A stretch of DNA of 64,000 nucleotides from a bacterium (GTDB lineage: Bacteria > UBA10199 > 2-02-FULL-50-16 > JAJFLM01): contig CBDCFN010000016.1 of NCBI GenBank assembly GCA_965216315.1, forward strand, positions 320,001 to 384,000, in the 5' to 3' direction. Positions within the stretch are counted from its first letter, which is position 1, and every line of letters starts with the position of its first letter. This document shows, piece by piece, positions 18,001 through 54,000 of the stretch. Position numbers: made by a program.

Positions 18001-21000
18001 TCGTGTTAAGCCGGCGCCACATCCGCAAGGGCATCGCCCAGGCGGTTGTTATCAATAGCGGTAACGCCAATGCCTGTACCGGTGACCGCGGTATGAAAGA
18101 CGCTCGGGTGATGGCCAAAACAACGGCACAGTGTCTGCAAGTCACGTCGTCGCGCGTCCTGGTTTGTTCGACAGGGGTGATCGGCGTGCCTCTTCCCATC
18201 CGGCAAGTTGTTAGCGGGATTAAGCAAGGTGCCGGCCAACTGAAGCCGCAAGCATTAGGGGCCGCTGCTGAAGCGATTATGACGACGGATAAAGGGCCCA
18301 AAAAAACCGGGGCGATCGATCAGGTCGGCCGGCTGCCGTTTCGACTCGTTTCTTTTGCCAAAGGGGCGGGGATGATAGAGCCCCATATGAAATTGGAACG
18401 GCCGCATGCAACCCTGCTGGCCTTCGCGATGACGGATCTCTGTTTAGAGCCGCGATGGGCGGCGCGCGTGCTCAGTGAAGCCGTTGAAGCCTCATTCAAT
18501 TGTATTTCGGTCGATGGCGATACCTCGACCAATGATACCTGCTTGCTACTGGCCAATGGTAAGGCGGGCAATAAGCCACTCAAGCCCGGTACGGCCGGCG
18601 CGCGCCGGTTTGAGCGTCTCCTTGCCGAGCAACTCCAGTACCTCGCCAAGGAAATGGTGGCGGACGGCGAAGGGGCGACGAAGGTCGCGACCATTATCGT
18701 CAAGGGGGCCAAGACCCATAGTCAAGCGCGTCAAATAGCCTATACCATCGCTAATTCGCAGCTCGTGCGGACCTCGTTTTACGGCGCGGATCCCAATTGG
18801 GGCCGCGTTCTTGCCGCTGCCGGCAATTCCGGCGCAACTTGTCGACCCGACAAGGTCGATATTTCTTATGGAAATGTTCGAGTTTGCCGGAAAGGGCTCG
18901 ATGCGGGGCCCGTAGCGGAACGTCGCGCTAAAAAGGTCCTCCAGGCCCAGGAATTCAGCGTGACGATTGACTGCCATCTCGGACAAGGCACCCACCAACT
19001 CCTTTCTAGCGATCTCGGCATTGAATATGTTAAGTTAAATAGCTGTTATAGAAGCTAACATTAACATTTTTTTGTCTCGATTATGGCTGATTTGGCAGAA
19101 TCATTGAGCGGCATTAATAAGCTAATCGCTAAGTACAGTGATCTCGTGATTGCGGGACTCGTTGTGGCGGTCTTGGCGATTATTGTCATTCCGCTGCCAA
19201 CTTGGCTCATTGATATCATGATAACCATCAATATCACCGGTGGTGTCATCTTGATGTTGACGGCCCTTTACATCAATAACGCCCTTCAAATCGCGAGTTT
19301 TCCGACCATCTTGCTGATTTCCACCTTGTACCGGCTGTCGATCAATATCGCGACCACGCGTCAGATTCTGGGGACCGGTCAGGCCGGTGAAGTGATCTAT
19401 GCCTTTGGTAATTTCGTGGTCGGGGGCAACTACGTCGTCGGGGGAATACTCTTTGCGATCATTACCTTGGTCAACTTTCTCGTCATTGCCAAAGGTTCGG
19501 AGCGTGTGTCGGAAGTCGGGGCCCGCTTTACCTTGGACGCGATGCCCGGAAAGCAGATGTCTATCGATGCGGATTTGAGGGCGGGCATTATCGATCAGGA
19601 TGACGCGCAGGAACGACGCGCCACCTTGCAGCGTGAATCTCAGATGTACGGGGCTATGGACGGTGCGATGAAGTTCGTTAAAGGGGACGCGATCGCCGGT
19701 ATCGTCATTACCTTCATCAACGTTATCGGTGGCCTCTCCATCGGGGTATTGCAGCGCGGGCTCGAGTTAGGCAATGCGGCCAAACAATATACCTTGCTCT
19801 CGATTGGTGACGGGCTGGTGTCGCAGGTTCCGGCGCTGATTATTTCGGTGTCGGCCGGTATCGTCGTTACGCGTGTCGCCTCGGAAGGTGAGGACGCGAA
19901 TCTCGGCCGCGACATTATCAGCCAGATGACGGCCTACCCGAAGGCCCTGATGATTGGGGCGGGATTGCTCTTTGTGATGGGAATTATCCCGGGCTTGCCG
20001 ACCGTGCCCTTCCTGGTGCTGGCGGCGGCCTTAGGCGCCTTATCGTTCTTCTTGGTGCGCGGCAAGGTGAAGGCCGTGCAGGATGTCATGGAGACACCGA
20101 AGGAAGAGGTTGTTAAGAAAGCGGTCGCGAAACATGGGGATCAGCTCCCTTTTATTATGCCTGCGCCGATCTCGCTGGAAGTCGGTTCCGGTTTGATCCC
20201 TTTTGTCGACGATACGCAGGATGGAGGGCGTTTTATCAATGAATTGATTCCATTGCTGCGGCATGGCCTTTACTATGAATTAGGCGTCAATTTTCCGGGT
20301 ATTCAGGTGCGTGGCCAAAATATTGATATGGAGCCGAATGCCTACGTGATCAACATCAATGAGGTGCCGGTCGCGCATGGTAGCGCGGAAAGTGGTTGCA
20401 TCCTCGTCGGCGAACCGCTGGAACAGCTGTCGTTGTTTAATATTACGGGAAAAGAGACAATTCATCCCATTGATGGATCGGTGGTGACCTGGATTTCCGA
20501 ACAGTACCGTGAAGTCGCGCAGCAGGCCGGCTTTCGAATGTGGGACGTGGCGGAGTATCTCATCCTGCATCTCTCCCATTTACTCCGCAAACATGCCCAT
20601 GAATTCTTAGGCCTCCAGGAAGTGCAGACCTTGCTCAACGAGCTCGAAAAGACGCATCCGGCGCTGATCAAGGAGTTAGTGCCGAAGGTGATTACAATCT
20701 TGCAATTATCAGAAATATTTCAGCGTTTGGTCCAGGAAGACATTTCGATTCGCGATCTCAAAAATATCTTTTCGACGATGGCGCAGTGGGGAGAAATTGA
20801 GCGGGATTCGGTCGCGCTTACCGAACATATTCGCGCGGGTCTCAAGCGTTACGTGACTTATAAGTATGCCGGCCAGACCGCCACGCTGGCCGTGTATCTC
20901 TTGGATCCGAATATCGAGGAAATGATCAAGGCGGCGATACGCAAGACAGATAAAGGCAACTATCTCGCGCTCGAACCGGAGATCATGCAGGAACTCGTGG

Positions 21001-51000: not shown

Positions 51001-54000
51001 TCCAGTCACCGCCTTCGATCAAGGCGATGTCCGCGGACATCCCGCCGCCGCCGGAAGATAGCCCGCTTTGGAATGAATCGGATCCGTCGATGCAGGTCTC
51101 CGATGTGGAGCTGCAGGCCCTTGATGAGTTTACCCAACAGATGGCGGGCATTGCCTCGGAAGGGGGCGATGCGAATGACGCCTGGCTCAACGGGGCGGAT
51201 AGCATCCTCGATAAACTCAAAGAACAATACGGGGATCCGCAGATGGCCATCGGTGACGGCGAGATGACCGGTGGGATCTGGGACTGGATGATGACCGGTG
51301 AAGTCAGTCGTGAGGCCGCTGAGGTCGATGACAGATGGCGTACCCTGATTCAGTCGTTGCTGGCGGATCCCAAGGCCAGTGCGGTTGATGTGCTGATGGC
51401 GATGGGCCAATATTTAACGGAGAAAAACGGGAAGGGACTGACCGAGGCCTTCAAGCTGTTTCACAATAAAGAAGTCGCTTATCAAGAGAATATGGCGGAG
51501 CTGGGCCTGGGCGAAAAGGCCCTCAATCCGACGGAGATGATGCAGGCGCAGGAAGAGATGCGCCAGTTTGGGATGGACTCCCAGATGGGGATGCAGGTGA
51601 TCCAGCAGTTCCGTCAGGACATCGACCGGACGCAGAACTACGTGAAGTCTTCCGCGACGGCGGTTCATCAGACGCTCCGAGCCATGATCCAAAACTACGC
51701 GTTACGATAAGTGGGGGAGACGCGTTAGGGTGGCGCGTGAGTTGATACGGGTCGAACTATCATGGATGAGACGTATACGAGGGGTCAAAAGACGACAACG
51801 CGGGAACAGGACCCTAATCCTGACCGGGTAAAACATCTCGCCGAACTCCTTCATCGATTTGCCACCAATAAAATCAGTCTGGCCGATATCGCGCGCCTGC
51901 CGCGCAAAGAATTGCGACGCATGACCGAGATCGGTCATACCAAGCTCAAATACGGTCGTTACAAAGAGGCCTTAGAGATCTTTTCGATGCTCGCCAAGGT
52001 CGACCACAAAAACTATTATTATCGTTCCGCTCTCGGTGGTGTGTATCAGAAGATGAAAAAATGGATCGAGTCCCTGGCGAGTTATACGATTGCCCTCAAA
52101 CTCAATAAGAATGATACCGCCAGCCTCGTCAATCGCGGGGAGATTTTTTTGCGTCATGACAAGTTCAAGCGGGCCGCGGAAGATTTTCGTCGCGCCATCC
52201 TGACGGACAAGGCGGGAAAAAACCTATGGGCGAATCGGGCCCGCTCTTTGGTGATTGCGCTCAAGCGCAGCGTGGAAGCCAAGAAAAATGTGAAGAAAGC
52301 CACCCGGCCCGCCTTGCCGGCATCACGTAAGCCGGTGCCGCGGAGTGCGGGAAGAAGAAGGTAAGAAATTTATCTCCCCCTTTACAAAGGGAGGGACTCT
52401 AAGTGGGACAGTTGACGCTCTTTAATCGTTGTCGTTGAGGATCCCATATTTCTTGAGCAGATTGCGGATGTGCTTCCGGTCGATTCCAGCCTCGCGGGCG
52501 GTCTTGGAGATGTTGTAATTGTTGCGCCGGAGCAGGGCGGCCAGATAGTCCCGTTCAAAGGATTCGACGATCTTTTGCTTGGCCTCTTTGAAGGGCAGGC
52601 CGAGATCGACCTCCGGGAGTTTTTCAGTGACCTCGTCTTCTTCACGTTCCAACTCTTGAAAGACATAGGCTAAGTCCTGACCTTTGACGGAATCCCCGTT
52701 GACTAAGGGGACGACGCGCGAGAGGACGTTGACGAGTTCCCGGACGTTTCCCGGCCATTGATAACGAGTGAGCATCTTGAGGGCGTCATCTTCCACGCGC
52801 GTGACATGAAGGCTGCCATCGGGATTGCGATTGAAATCCCCCTCGGACAAGAAACGTTCGACCAGCATTTCGATGTCATCAGGGCGTTCGCGCAAGGGCG
52901 GAATGAAAATTTTGACGACGGAGAGCCGATAATAGAGATCCTCGCGAAAATTGCTATCAGCGACTTCTTTGCGCAGATTGCGATTGGTCGCGCAGAGCAC
53001 GCGGACATCAATGCTCACCGTATCGTTAGAACCGACCTTTTTGATTTGGCGTTGCTCTAAGGCGCGCAGCAGTTTCGGTTGCAGGTCCATGGAGAGTTCG
53101 CCGATTTCATCGAGAAAGATCGTCCCTCCAGTGGCTTCCTCAAAGGCCCCTTTGCGGGTCGACACGGCCCCGGTAAATGAACCTTTCATATGACCAAAGA
53201 GTTCCGATTCGATCAAATTTTCGGCCACGGCCGAACAATCGAAGACGACAAAGGGTTTATCTTTGCGGGGACTGTTGTCATGGATGGAGCGGGCAACGAC
53301 TTCTTTACCGACACCGGTTTCCCCTTCGATAATAACCGTCGCATTGGTAGGCGAGATCCGACTGAGGAGGCCGAAGATCTGGCGCATGCGCCGTGACCGG
53401 CCGATTAAACGCCCGAATTCGGTTTTTTCCGAGGGCTCCACCTGAACCTTTTCATCGAAAGCAATAAATTCAATGCGGGAGTTGCCGATGCGAATAATAT
53501 CGCCGGGGGCGAGATAGGCTTCTTTGACCCGCGTTTCGTTAATAAACGTGCCGTTAGTGCTCTCGAGATCTCTTAATAGAAAACTGTCTTCTTCCGGTAC
53601 GATTTCAAAGTGAGTCCGCGAGACCGCTCGGTCCTCGATGGCGAGTCCATTGTCCTCTTTTTTGCCGATCGTGATACGGTTGTCTTTAAGGTCCATCTTG
53701 CGGCCTTTGCTGGTCCCTTCAACGACTACGAGCTGGCATTTACGGAGACTGACGACATCCTTGTTTTCGTCGAGTCGTAAGAGTTGGGTATCACTCTCTA
53801 AGATTTCATTTTGCGCCATGCTGACTCCTTAACTTCATTTAATTTTTTTGTAGCCGAACGTTATAACGTTTGTTTTTTTCGCGGCTCATATCGACGGATG
53901 TGGACCAAGGACGGAACCCGTTCATCTCCACGCGCAAGCTGTGTGAACGGTTGCGTGGGACCTTGCGAATCGTTACGGGAGTTCGGGCCCCGATGCGATT

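Follow-up and report, generated by a model that had tools for sequence, protein, structure and literature searches.

A conserved non-flagellar type III secretion locus lacking its own secretin, with a candidate needle module and a probably exported protein family, in a genome of phylum UBA10199

The locus at positions 19083–56496 of the window (the whole 64,000-nucleotide stretch of DNA analysed) raises the question of which kind of type III machine it encodes and what that machine might export. The initial annotation read it as a needle-less T3SS* with five orphan proteins as candidate cargo. Pfam and NCBIfam profile searches find genes for SctV, SctJ, SctL, SctN, SctO, SctR, SctS, SctT, SctD-like, SctP/FliK-like, FliM-like/FliN and FliO proteins, and in addition for FliG-like and SctI-like proteins, a sigma-28-like factor, TPR proteins, an FHA-containing sigma-54 activator and a Ser/Thr kinase. 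The gene content first described is found where it had been placed, but details differ (the FliG-like and SctI-like genes, a secretin-family ORF, MotA/ExbB genes and the PEGA domains). What the data support is a non-flagellar type III system, conserved and without its own secretin. The best explanation of the sequences, which we consider moderately probable, is that they encode a functional type III export machine that is not flagellar, has been inherited vertically and is of the basal 'Myxo/T3SS*' kind. The original interpretation stands as to a conserved non-flagellar system; the absence of a needle is doubtful, and the type of cargo is read differently here.

The export gate should be noted first. 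SctV (19083–21218, +) matches FHIPEP at 787.6 bits and scores 806 bits against TIGR01399 (hrcV), above the cut-off of 692, whereas its score against the FlhA model (698 bits) is under the FlhA cut-off of 772. The ATPase complex consists of the stator SctL/FliH (32867–33610, +; FliH 67.9 bits, T3SS_SCTL 36.8 bits), the ATPase SctN/FliI (33614–34939, +; ATP-synt_ab and T3SS_ATPase_C) and the stalk SctO/FliJ (35032–35535, +; YscO-like 81.6 bits, FliJ 40.4 bits). The ATPase exceeds the cut-offs of both FliI_clade2 (638 bits) and SctN (620 bits). A SctP/FliK-like switch protein with a T3S4 domain, FliK/HpaP-like, follows (35645–36565, +; Flg_hook 39.1 bits, over the cut-off; HpaP 21.9 bits). Downstream are a FliM-like C-ring protein (36583–37539, +; FliM 36.2 bits, cut-off 27), FliN/SctQ-C (37545–38039, +; FliMN_C 68.9 bits, SpaO_YscQ 83.2 bits), FliO (38036–38365, +; 31.7 bits, cut-off 22), SctR/FliP (38343–39233, +; FliP 210.6 bits), SctS/FliQ (39409–39675, +; Bac_export_3 90.5 bits) and SctT/FliR (39690–40514, +; Bac_export_1 169.8 bits). 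SctU, placed away from the locus from the start, is indeed a single copy elsewhere in the genome by profile search, and carries an NPTH site. The core genes listed earlier were all recovered, but that list omitted a FliG-like gene in the SctK/FliG position (31908–32918, +; FliG_C 29.3 bits, cut-off 23.3; FliG_M 18.4 bits). Its orthologues share an EIHPGW..ESPR motif, and its atlas neighbours, a lead only, are FliG-domain clusters that are commonest in Myxococcota.

The ring proteins resemble those of injectisomes. SctJ (28456–29463, +; YscJ_FliF 82 bits) has a lipobox and a C-terminal transmembrane segment, and scores 115 bits against TIGR02544 versus 37.8 bits against FliF. The SctD-like bitopic protein (24707–26869, +; Yop-YscD_cpl, FHA, PEGA and TPR) places a cytoplasmic FHA domain before a transmembrane segment (229–247) and two PEGA domains plus TPR in the periplasm; its match to TIGR02500 (yscD; 39.3 bits, under the cut-off) covers the N-terminal part only. 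A second protein (21219–22277, −; Yop-YscD_cpl) has two FHA domains and a C-terminal anchor (331–349), and is kept in 10 of 12 neighbourhoods. Both had been described as FHA/PEGA SctD-like proteins; FHA is present in both, but PEGA only in the former. Between them lie a 413-residue TPR lipoprotein (22281–23522, −; many TPR families, N-terminal signal, LNGC lipobox-like site, weak PilW/Tgl-like matches) and a 381-residue exported conserved protein (23524–24669, −) that matches no Pfam or NCBIfam family, has a hydrophobic N-terminal segment (33–51) and has orthologues in five relatives. The inner rod may be represented by g858 (31407–31895, +), since PF17001 is matched by 5 of 9 orthologues (best E 7.2e-4); in the PDB profile search FliE is its sole match (E 0.65). 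The proposed roles fit the predicted membrane topologies of the locus proteins.

Several parts are missing from the genome, which is 98.3% complete. Profile searches find no Flg_bb_rod, Flagellin_N, MotB_plug or FliE in the genome, and the best match to Flg_bbr_C reaches only E 0.88, in agreement with the original observation that flagellar rod, hook, flagellin and stator genes are lacking. The wider statement that there is no rod holds for flagellar rods but not for the SctI-like g858. The system would combine flagellum-like cytoplasmic parts (FliG-like, FliM-like/FliN, FliO, FliJ/SctO, the FliK/SctP-like switch and the NPTH-bearing SctU) with injectisome-like rings (the SctJ lipoprotein and the FHA-bearing SctD-like protein) and a SctI-like rod. 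No secretin linked to the type III system and no outer-membrane conduit for it were found in the genome. The secretin had been confined to the type II system (T2SS), but a second, weak secretin-family ORF (253 residues; 27.5 bits, exactly at the cut-off) lies far from the locus. Three MotA/ExbB-family genes are also present in the genome.

A needle is not detectable by profile, the best genome match to T3SS_needle_F being E 0.14. This agrees with the term needle-less, but the term is doubtful and unproven because g851, g852 and g853 are laid out like a needle subunit with its chaperones and may be such a module. g852 (27385–27936, +), the candidate needle- or filament-like subunit, lacks Cys, transmembrane segment and signal peptide; in the orthologue alignment an N-terminal helix, a Gly-rich middle and a C-terminal helix ending in ..NFR are seen. 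It matches nothing in Pfam or PDB profile searches, and its resemblance to the C-terminus of the Y family described below reaches an hhalign probability of 67% (E 5e-5). Directly 5′, in a placement conserved across the relatives' neighbourhoods, is g851 (27005–27358, +), a small two-helix protein conserved among 9 aligned orthologues, with no family match, that could be a co-chaperone. On the other side, g853 (28016–28459, +; Pfam TPR families) is a small TPR chaperone-like protein with scores of 40.9 (LcrH_SycD), 33.3 (SctY) and 32.5 bits (CdsG), every one under its cut-off.

Conservation in the phylum speaks for a maintained system. FHIPEP, marking SctV/FlhA genes, occurs in 91 of 93 genomes and flagellar rod genes in only 11 of 93; the whole gene order is kept in 8 of the 12 SctV neighbourhoods fetched. 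The Myxococcus T3SS*, or 'Myxo' NF-T3SS, is described as comprising SctD, SctJ, SctI, SctQ, SctR, SctS, SctT, SctU, SctV, SctN and SctL with LcrH-like chaperones (PMC10433427; PMC3459982), and the gene content of the locus matches these published descriptions, at which level the comparison stands. However, Kil/Tad, the partner of T3SS*, is absent here: the genome has neither a Tad/Kil ATPase nor one of a type IV pilus, and the single T2SSE-family ATPase is that of the T2SS. Kinship with the Myxococcus T3SS* is suggested only indirectly.

The five orphan ORFs o1–o5 (717, 491, 460, 624 and 601 residues) match no family, and in none of them is a transmembrane segment or signal peptide predicted. 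Four share a C-terminal three-helix domain, X, behind variable N-terminal parts, as found by blastp, family alignment and HMM: o2 (42938–44413, +; HMM E 4e-29), o3 (44685–46067, +; 61% identical to o2), o4 (46297–48132, +) and o5 (48233–50038, +). The start of o4 was corrected to 46297 (the ORF opens at 46258), and its N-terminus read from there parallels that of o5. The AF2 model of the C-terminal 139 residues of o5 shows three helices (pLDDT 95). Among 1.84 billion representatives, 87 proteins carry X at E ≤ 1e-3, nearly always C-terminally; none of the 75 members scanned passes a Pfam cut-off, with three weak sub-threshold matches. X is followed by a candidate LcrH/SycD-like TPR chaperone of 228 residues (50124–50810, +; TIGR02552 75.6 bits, cut-off 104.8; also SicA), then by g878 of the Y family (50814–51710, +), and then by a second such candidate of 200 residues (51762–52364, +; TIGR02552 69.3 bits; SicA; 32% identical to the first). 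For both TPR proteins LcrH/SycD is the best NCBIfam family, under its curated cut-off. This block is conserved in the relatives' neighbourhoods. The C-terminus of g878, ending in ..IQNYALR, is distantly X-like (X-family HMM E 1.7e-4; hhalign against the X alignment E 4e-4), and 8 positional orthologues match the HMM too (E 6.7e-6 to 0.16); its all-helical AF2 model is of low confidence (pLDDT 51). Profile searches with X, Y and g852 matched no known substrate family, and fold searches gave generic helical hairpins only.

The proposal that the five orphans are cargo is favored by the lack of signal peptides, locus-type promoters and the TPR genes, but four of the five belong to one family, which is kept in 65 of the phylum's 93 genomes. 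These four, o2–o5, seem closer to conserved substrates of the middle or late class, such as tip-, translocator- or filament-like proteins, than to effectors specific to one lineage. Better effector candidates are o1 (40590–42743, +), which has one homologue (32% identity) and a HEAAH motif in its translation, and the distant array of the sigma-28 regulon.

Nor is the tie of the orphans to the machine one of position alone, as had been assumed: besides the LcrH/SycD-like genes that follow, o1, o2 and o5 have sigma-28-type promoters, and o3 and o4 sigma-54-type ones. The sigma-28-type motif GCAACT-N13-15-GCCGATAA lies upstream of o1 (40553–40579, +; GCAACT-N13-GGCGATAA), o2 (42888–42914, +; GCAACT-N13-GCCGATAA), o5 (48180–48208, +; GCAACT-N15-GCCGATAA) and g855 (29487–29515, +; GCAACT-N15-GGCGATAA). 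g855 (29541–29996, +) is a small protein with a hydrophobic hairpin (segment 36–65) whose positional orthologues carry the same motif. The genome holds 17 sites, 4 inside the locus, against 0–1 in five shuffles. In 5 of 8 relatives the motif precedes X genes or those in the g855 or g852 position, and 92 of 93 phylum genomes have 2–55 sites each (reversed control, 0–1), the only genome without it being 60% complete.

The FliA/WhiG-like sigma factor of the locus (30583–31410, +; Sigma70_r2 and r4) probably reads this motif. The two are tied by analogy with the sigma-28 −10 consensus. The factor is the genome's best FliA-like match (TIGR02479 133 bits, under the cut-off of 189.6). Its likely start, ATG 30583 in an ORF opening at 30511, was inferred from a Shine–Dalgarno (SD) sequence and the promoter. 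Directly upstream is g856 (30010–30369, +), a small, poorly conserved ORF with positional orthologues only and no family match. The sigma gene is preceded by a sigma-54-type site (30531–30546, +; TGGCACAAATACTGCA, one mismatch), and in the loci of 8 of 8 relatives a site of this kind likewise stands upstream of the sigma gene. Exact sites precede o3 (44601–44616, +; TGGCATGAAACTTGCT) and o4 (46259–46274, +; TGGCATGGGTCTTGCA, followed by an SD sequence and ATG 46297). The five sites seen in the window at one mismatch or fewer are no excess over chance, 32 of 100 shuffles having reached five; 94 exact sites occur genome-wide. At the end of the locus, both syntenic in relatives, are a sigma-54 enhancer-binding protein with an N-terminal FHA domain (52422–53819, −; Sigma54_activat 230.9 bits, HTH_8) and a Ser/Thr kinase with five PEGA domains (53839–56496, −; Pkinase 132.5 bits, PEGA 233.7 bits).

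These genes suggest a two-step switch. The membrane kinase would act on the FHA-bearing activator, sigma-54 promoters would then turn on the sigma-28-like factor together with o3 and o4, and this factor would probably activate o1, o2, o5, g855 and about a dozen family-less genes. The cargo would probably be Cys-poor proteins without signal peptides, namely o2–o5 of X and g878 of Y, and probably g852; a TPR chaperone-like gene follows X and likewise Y, and g852 lies between g851 and g853. X, Y and g852 belong to the conserved core, and for this reason their most likely role is to build or cap a tip-, translocator- or filament-like structure that depends on export. The X domain, the X-TPR-Y-TPR block, both promoter types and the possible needle module are new here. 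In this uncultured lineage the inner half of a type III machine has been retained in full, together with a probable genetic switch of its own, and a formerly unnamed, probably exported family offers testable candidates for the cargo of a 'needle-less' machine. The regulon is wider than type III cargo, because several genes with the sigma-28-type motif encode lipoproteins with Sec signals.

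The ORF listing, Pfam, and NCBIfam agree on the type III core that the initial annotation had located in the window. The core comprises SctV, SctJ, SctL, SctN, SctO/FliJ, a FliK/HpaP-like T3S4 protein, a FliM-like protein, FliN, FliO, SctR, SctS, and SctT (Pfam and NCBIfam), and the locus further encodes a sigma factor resembling FliA/WhiG, four proteins with TPR, an FHA-bearing sigma-54 activator, and a PEGA Ser/Thr kinase. One of the two FHA proteins proposed to be SctD-like has the topology expected from that name (FHA, TM segment, two PEGA domains, and TPR), with a model match of 39.3 bits that is below the cut-off and confined to the N-terminal FHA part; the other pairs two FHA domains with a membrane anchor at the C-terminus and carries no PEGA domain. 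SctU is encoded outside the locus, as had been claimed, by a single gene located ~485 kb away that keeps the NPTH autocleavage site. This lone sctU and its divergent neighbors occupy positions 6073-10091 of L005, another stretch of the genome (G000:C16:802072-806090); the neighbors encode a Ser/Thr kinase with PEGA and a protein of the FHA-GGDEF type and form a second module of the FHA/kinase kind that is linked to the system. Directly upstream of sctV lie secA and argJ (window 15145-19058), which are ordinary housekeeping neighbors. The GC content is 0.38-0.49 at window 1-4000 and 58000-64000 and ~0.55 over the locus.

All components examined for membership in the core of the Myxo-type NF-T3SS (SctR, S, T, U, V, N, L, Q, and J together with SctD and SctI) are present. 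Judging from the NCBIfam scores, SctV and SctJ are of the non-flagellar type: SctV exceeds the cut-off of the hrcV model and falls below that of the FlhA model, and the 335-aa SctJ is scored higher by the SctJ model than by the FliF model. SctN is above the cut-offs of both FliI_clade2 and SctN, and the flagellar and non-flagellar models score about equally for SctS and SctT. Such split scores fit a basal non-flagellar system. We consider it fairly probable as a whole that the locus encodes a functional basal non-flagellar T3SS under the control of a cascade leading from kinase and FHA proteins through sigma-54 to sigma-28, that conserved structural or tip/translocator-like substrates would be exported by it, and that effectors would be found among further proteins of the same regulon. 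The putative substrates are the X family, consisting of four (o2-o5) of the five orphan ORFs at window 40590-50038, the Y family, represented by g878 (window 50814-51710), and probably the small protein g852; the effector candidates are the remaining orphan, o1, and the products of a distant gene array.

The gene at window 31908-32918 occupies the fliG/sctK position. Its product matches FliG_C above the gathering score and FliG_M below the cut-off, while FliG_N and any NCBIfam match are absent. The product is thus FliG-like by profile scores, and identity as FliG goes beyond them. From the ring protein gene through this gene and onward, the order fliG-H-I-J-K-M-N-O-P-Q-R (with FliK-like and FliM-like members) is common to the locus and the flagellum. 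However, the locus and the genome lack FliE, FlgB/C/F/G, hook, flagellin, and MotB, the ring protein is of the SctJ type rather than FliF, and the -35 promoter element is GCAACT, all unlike the flagellum. An EIHPGW..ESPR motif is kept among the orthologs of the FliG-like protein; a contig scan with a degenerate pattern of this motif gave a single, unrelated contig (Geminicoccaceae) and nothing from the genomes of its own phylum. The nearest ESM Atlas clusters (scores 0.94, 0.93, and 0.91) are FliG-domain proteins or unnamed, and the commonest phylum among them is Myxococcota, which is a lead, not a test, pointing toward that phylum.

The genome searched for missing parts amounts to 2.96 Mb in 16 contigs and is 98.3% complete. 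The claimed absence of flagellar genes was borne out, since no match to Flg_bb_rod, Flagellin_N, MotB_plug, or FliE was found in the whole genome, and Flg_bbr_C gave a whole-genome match only at the chance level (E 0.88). Three MotA/ExbB-family genes are located outside the locus. The absence of a profile-detectable needle also stands: the best T3SS_needle_F match in the whole genome has E 0.14 and lies inside g878. T3SS_basalb_I matches the genome only at the chance level (E 0.10), outside the locus, and no tip or translocon family matches X, Y, or g852. The statement that the only secretin is GspD holds for the 988-aa GspD within a GspC-D-E-F...J-K operon of a T2SS, but has to be amended for a second PF00263 match, a 253-aa ORF exactly at the cut-off (Secretin_N 28.7 bits, Secretin 27.5 bits). 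These two are the only PF00263 matches in the genome, and neither belongs to the type III system. The 253-aa ORF lies between ilvC and glnS on the minus strand (positions 9618-10379 of the stretch L004; G000:C16:16617-17378), far from any secretion locus, and is shorter than secretins usually are. The genome contains one T2SSE-family ATPase, GspE of the T2SS operon, indicating that there is neither a Tad/Kil system nor a type IV pilus motor.

In reviews and a primary paper, the Myxococcus needle-less system, T3SS*, is described as SctD, J, I, Q, RSTUV, N, and L with LcrH-like chaperones and without secretin, needle, or translocon (PMC10433427, PMC12075869, PMC12428579). Our comparison of gene content is based on these descriptions in the reviews and in PMC12075869. 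As described there, the T3SS* of M. xanthus (MXAN_2434-2464; the "Myxo" NF-T3SS) shares with the UBA10199 system the export apparatus, the ATPase complex, the C-ring, SctJ, an FHA-type SctD, SctI, and several LcrH-like TPR proteins, a likeness of described content and not of sequence. Both also lack a secretin, a profile-detectable needle, known tip and translocon proteins, and the flagellar rod, hook, and stator. On the other hand, the UBA10199 system belongs to another phylum, where it is near-universal, and its genome has no Tad/Kil partner. A FliG-like gene is present here, whereas Abby and Rocha (2012; PMC3459982) count FliG with the genes that the Myxo loci lack. Moreover, the cascade from sigma-54 to sigma-28, the X and Y families, and the module of g851-g853 do not appear in the T3SS* descriptions consulted.

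The model that follows from the initial annotation is a T3SS* of the Myxococcus type that would kill or lyse prey on contact, with the five orphans as lytic cargo. The gene content matching these partial T3SS* descriptions, the Myxococcota relatives of the FliG-like protein, an HExxH-type motif (HEAAH) in o1 (window 40590-42743), and the large orphan genes in the region from sctT to X, which varies between genomes, are in line with that model. We nevertheless find it unlikely. In Myxococcus, T3SS* is recruited by the Kil Tad pilus and works with it, according to PMC12075869, and the sole T2SSE-family ATPase here serves the T2SS; in addition, four of the five orphans form one family conserved in 65 of the 93 genomes, a poor fit to variable toxins. 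The co-occurrence of Kil and T3SS* is limited to one suborder of Myxococcales in a 2025 review (PMC12428579). Among the texts returned by our literature search, many of them in part, there was no published description of a needle-less T3SS outside Myxococcales or of such a system in the UBA10199 lineage. The present locus would therefore widen the known range of needle-less systems to a separate phylum, in which the system is near-universal and has no Tad partner. The effectors of T3SS* are stated as unknown in PMC10433427 and PMC12075869.

Conservation was assessed across the 93 genomes of the phylum, including the one under study (G000). An FHIPEP gene is present in 91 of them, nearly all with a copy scoring ~780-800 bits as in G000. 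Flagellar rod proteins are found in only 11 genomes, and these flagellated members carry an additional, separate FlhA gene with a higher score (~860-890 bits). The whole gene order is kept in eight of 12 SctV neighborhoods (G041, G042, G056, G058, G062, G063, G065, and G080; seven families). It starts with sctV, one gene with two FHA domains, a TPR gene, unk381, FHA/PEGA, g851, g852, TPR147 (g853), sctJ, and two small ORFs, continues with the sigma gene, g858, the FliG-like gene, sctL, N, and O, the FliK-like and FliM-like genes, fliN, fliO, and sctR, S, and T, and ends with variable large ORFs, X, TPR228, Y, TPR200, the sigma-54 activator, and the kinase. Only FHA/TPR genes adjoin sctV in G001 and G012, and nothing beyond sctV was matched within the stretch examined in G034 and G081. 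This conserved order disfavors the idea that the locus is a decaying remnant of a flagellum or injectisome without present function. Though the missing outer parts and the detachment of SctU from the locus might be expected of a remnant, all genes are intact, FHIPEP is nearly ubiquitous, synteny extends over at least seven families, and the promoters are conserved, so that we regard decay as scarcely credible. The same argument was made for the Myxo loci by Abby and Rocha (PMC3459982).

The small genes directly upstream of sctJ are related to the question of a needle. In eight of eight syntenic relatives, as in the window, g851 (a two-helix protein), g852, and the small TPR gene g853 precede sctJ. 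In the alignment, g852 and its orthologs share an N-terminal helix, a glycine-rich middle part, and a C-terminal helix ending in ..NFR. The C-terminus of g852 also aligns with that of Y over 44 columns (hhalign probability 67%, E 5e-5), and g853 gives weak matches to CdsG and SctY. The yscE-yscF-yscG genes of injectisomes have the same layout, a subunit accompanied by two chaperones, and needle subunits end in a motif similar to ..NFR. This layout and the C-terminal motif are suggestive of an SctF-type needle module. Downstream of sctJ, g858 is SctI-like; PF17001 is matched by five of nine orthologs (best E 7e-4), and a search of the g858 family against PDB profiles gave FliE only (E 0.65).

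If g852 were a divergent subunit of a needle or filament and were held by g851 and g853, the system would not be needle-less: SctI (g858) and the SctP/FliK-like ruler would build a short axial structure, and X and Y would cap it as tip/translocator-like proteins. The retention of the substrate-switch parts known from injectisomes, the T3S4-domain SctP-like protein and an NPTH-bearing SctU, agrees with such a structure. However, T3SS_needle_F matches none of g852 and its eight orthologs, the best related hit is HrpA_pilin with E 0.15 in one of the nine, and PDB profile searches with the g852 family retrieved no needle protein. Unlike injectisomes, the system also has no SctC secretin through which a needle could pass and no match to a known translocator, tip, or needle family. 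Weighing these points, we see a short axial structure as a real possibility, although we lean somewhat against it.

The five orphans (717, 491, 460, 624, and 601 aa) have no signal peptide, in agreement with the initial annotation, and also no TM segment and no Pfam or NCBIfam match; they contain 0-1 cysteines. A C-terminal domain of ~135 aa is common to o2-o5 (the X domain). In a full HMMER search against 1.84 billion representatives, it was present in 87 proteins at E<=1e-3, 68 of them at <=1e-10, almost always at the extreme C-terminus of proteins of 350-620 aa, and none of the 75 X-domain proteins scanned against Pfam reached a family cut-off. With a diverse profile of 13 sequences the domain is detected in 65 of the 93 phylum genomes and in 44 of the 63 high-quality ones, whereas a four-sequence profile found it in just 17 of the 93. 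Most positive genomes have one copy of 350-440 aa, and G000 has four and a weak fifth elsewhere. The fifth, a distant X/Y-like protein, is a 490-aa open frame on the plus strand (G000:C16:1437003-1438475; E 5e-7 to the X profile A10) that ends in ..IIQNIGR and carries a GDPH motif in its N-terminal part. An N-terminal ME.W/Y...G.(R)FGL motif is common to X members from five genomes. Besides the X domain, o2 and o3 (window 42938-46067) share a Trp-rich N-terminal and middle region (..WTG.PMRIRVK..DG.WG.W..IPH..) that matches no family.

The AlphaFold2 model of the X domain, built from 85 sequences, has a pLDDT of 95 and shows a long helical hairpin preceded by a short helix. Foldseek gave no match to this model at E<=0.001, the ESM Atlas contained no usable match for the domain, and PDB profile searches yielded only coiled-coil noise. 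VIA-align wide reached Z values of up to 10.8, but all of its matches were generic hairpins, and YscO, FliJ, and IpaB were tied with many others.

X is always followed by a TPR protein of 190-230 aa, then by the helical Y protein of 285-425 aa (g878 here), and then by a paralogous TPR protein. The top NCBIfam match of both TPR proteins is SycD/LcrH (TIGR02552; 75.6 and 69.3 bits over nearly the full profile), and SicA is also matched; as the scores are below the cut-off for class membership (104.8), the two may be called SycD/LcrH work-alikes rather than proven members of the class. The X HMM also picks up g878 (E 1.7e-4) and its eight positional orthologs (E 6.7e-6 to 0.16) at their C-termini, these E-values being calculated for a set of ~600 proteins, and the hhalign alignment of g878 with X has E 4e-4 and a probability of only 34%. 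The AlphaFold2 model of g878 is all-helical with low confidence (pLDDT 51), too weak for a structure search.

The arrangement of X and Y resembles that of LcrH/SycD and YopB/D in injectisomes, in that genes for class-II-like TPR chaperones adjoin genes for helical substrates without a signal peptide in both, while X and Y differ from the injectisome translocators in having no TM hairpins. X and Y could instead stay in the cytoplasm as regulators or scaffolds of the coiled-coil type, sharing no more than their regulation with the machine. Both are long and helical, their structural matches are only generic hairpins that include the cytoplasmic YscO and FliJ, and no secretion signal can be recognized in their sequences. 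This cytoplasmic role seems quite improbable to us, since an LcrH/SycD-like TPR gene is paired with X and another with Y, the proteins have 0-1 Cys and neither a TM segment nor a signal peptide, late-type promoters are used, the N-terminal motif is conserved in a subset, and the variable N-terminal parts and expanded paralogs are typical of exposed proteins.

A sigma-28-type promoter, GCAACT-N13-15-G(C/G)CGATAA, is located 37-54 nt upstream of g855, o1, o2, and o5; its -35 element is GCAACT, and we take its -10 element, GCCGATAA, to equal the sigma-28 consensus. The genome has 17 such sites, as compared with 0-1 in five shuffles. The motif precedes X genes or genes at the g855/g852 position in five of eight relatives and occurs in 92 of the 93 genomes at 2-55 sites each (0-1 in the reversed control), the exception being one 60%-complete genome with none. 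Of all genes in the genome, the sigma gene of the locus is the most FliA-like, with 133 bits to its top family TIGR02479, below the cut-off of 189.6. Sigma-54-type sites lie before o3 and o4 (exact) and before the sigma gene (one mismatch). Each is followed by a Shine-Dalgarno sequence and ATG, so that o4 probably starts at 46297 and the sigma gene at 30583, which shifts both starts. At up to one mismatch, the number of sites in the window is not above chance, and 94 exact sites exist in the genome. In eight of eight relatives, such a site closely precedes the inferred start of the sigma gene, as in flagellar systems where sigma-54 acts before sigma-28. The obvious candidates for upstream regulators would be the two proteins encoded at the end of the locus, the activator with its FHA domain and the PEGA kinase.

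These features also allow a broader interpretation, in which the locus would encode a third kind of type III machine that is neither flagellum nor injectisome. It would be a near-universal organelle of the phylum with a FliG-like protein and a flagellar-style hierarchy from sigma-54 to sigma-28, and its export-dependent structure would be made from a superfamily (g852, Y, and X) sharing a needle-like C-terminal helix and bearing interchangeable N-terminal heads. We hold this interpretation to be doubtful; if true, the system would be a living intermediate of the transition from flagellum to injectisome, with substrates that can be named. The locus is in any case relevant to the origin of injectisomes from flagella, through its flagellar gene order, its FliG-like protein, and its control by sigma-54 and sigma-28. 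Testable handles are provided by the conserved family of substrate candidates with its paired LcrH-like chaperones, by the possible hidden needle module, and by the promoter motif, from which the regulon can be listed genome by genome across the phylum.

Six of the sigma-28-type sites precede genes of a 20-kb array, two precede paralogous lipoproteins, and five are single. The array comprises ten family-less genes of 200-900 aa on the minus strand, which fall into two paralog groups (stretch L063; G000:C16:2161000-2180999). Several of the N-termini are Cys-rich (e.g. M.CDLYGAS.L.G.PGLCRANPGTAYG) and all lack a signal peptide, and these proteins are candidate effectors of the same regulon. The lipoproteins (374 and 407 aa, 43% identical; positions 3563-6077 of the stretch L064, G000:C16:2034563-2037077) each have an identical sigma-28-type promoter, indicating that the regulon includes Sec-exported envelope proteins. 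The effector candidate o1 has a single homolog, P0091, with 32% identity. P0091 and the X-family protein P0019 are each encoded on a 28,940-bp NCBI contig, probably the same one.
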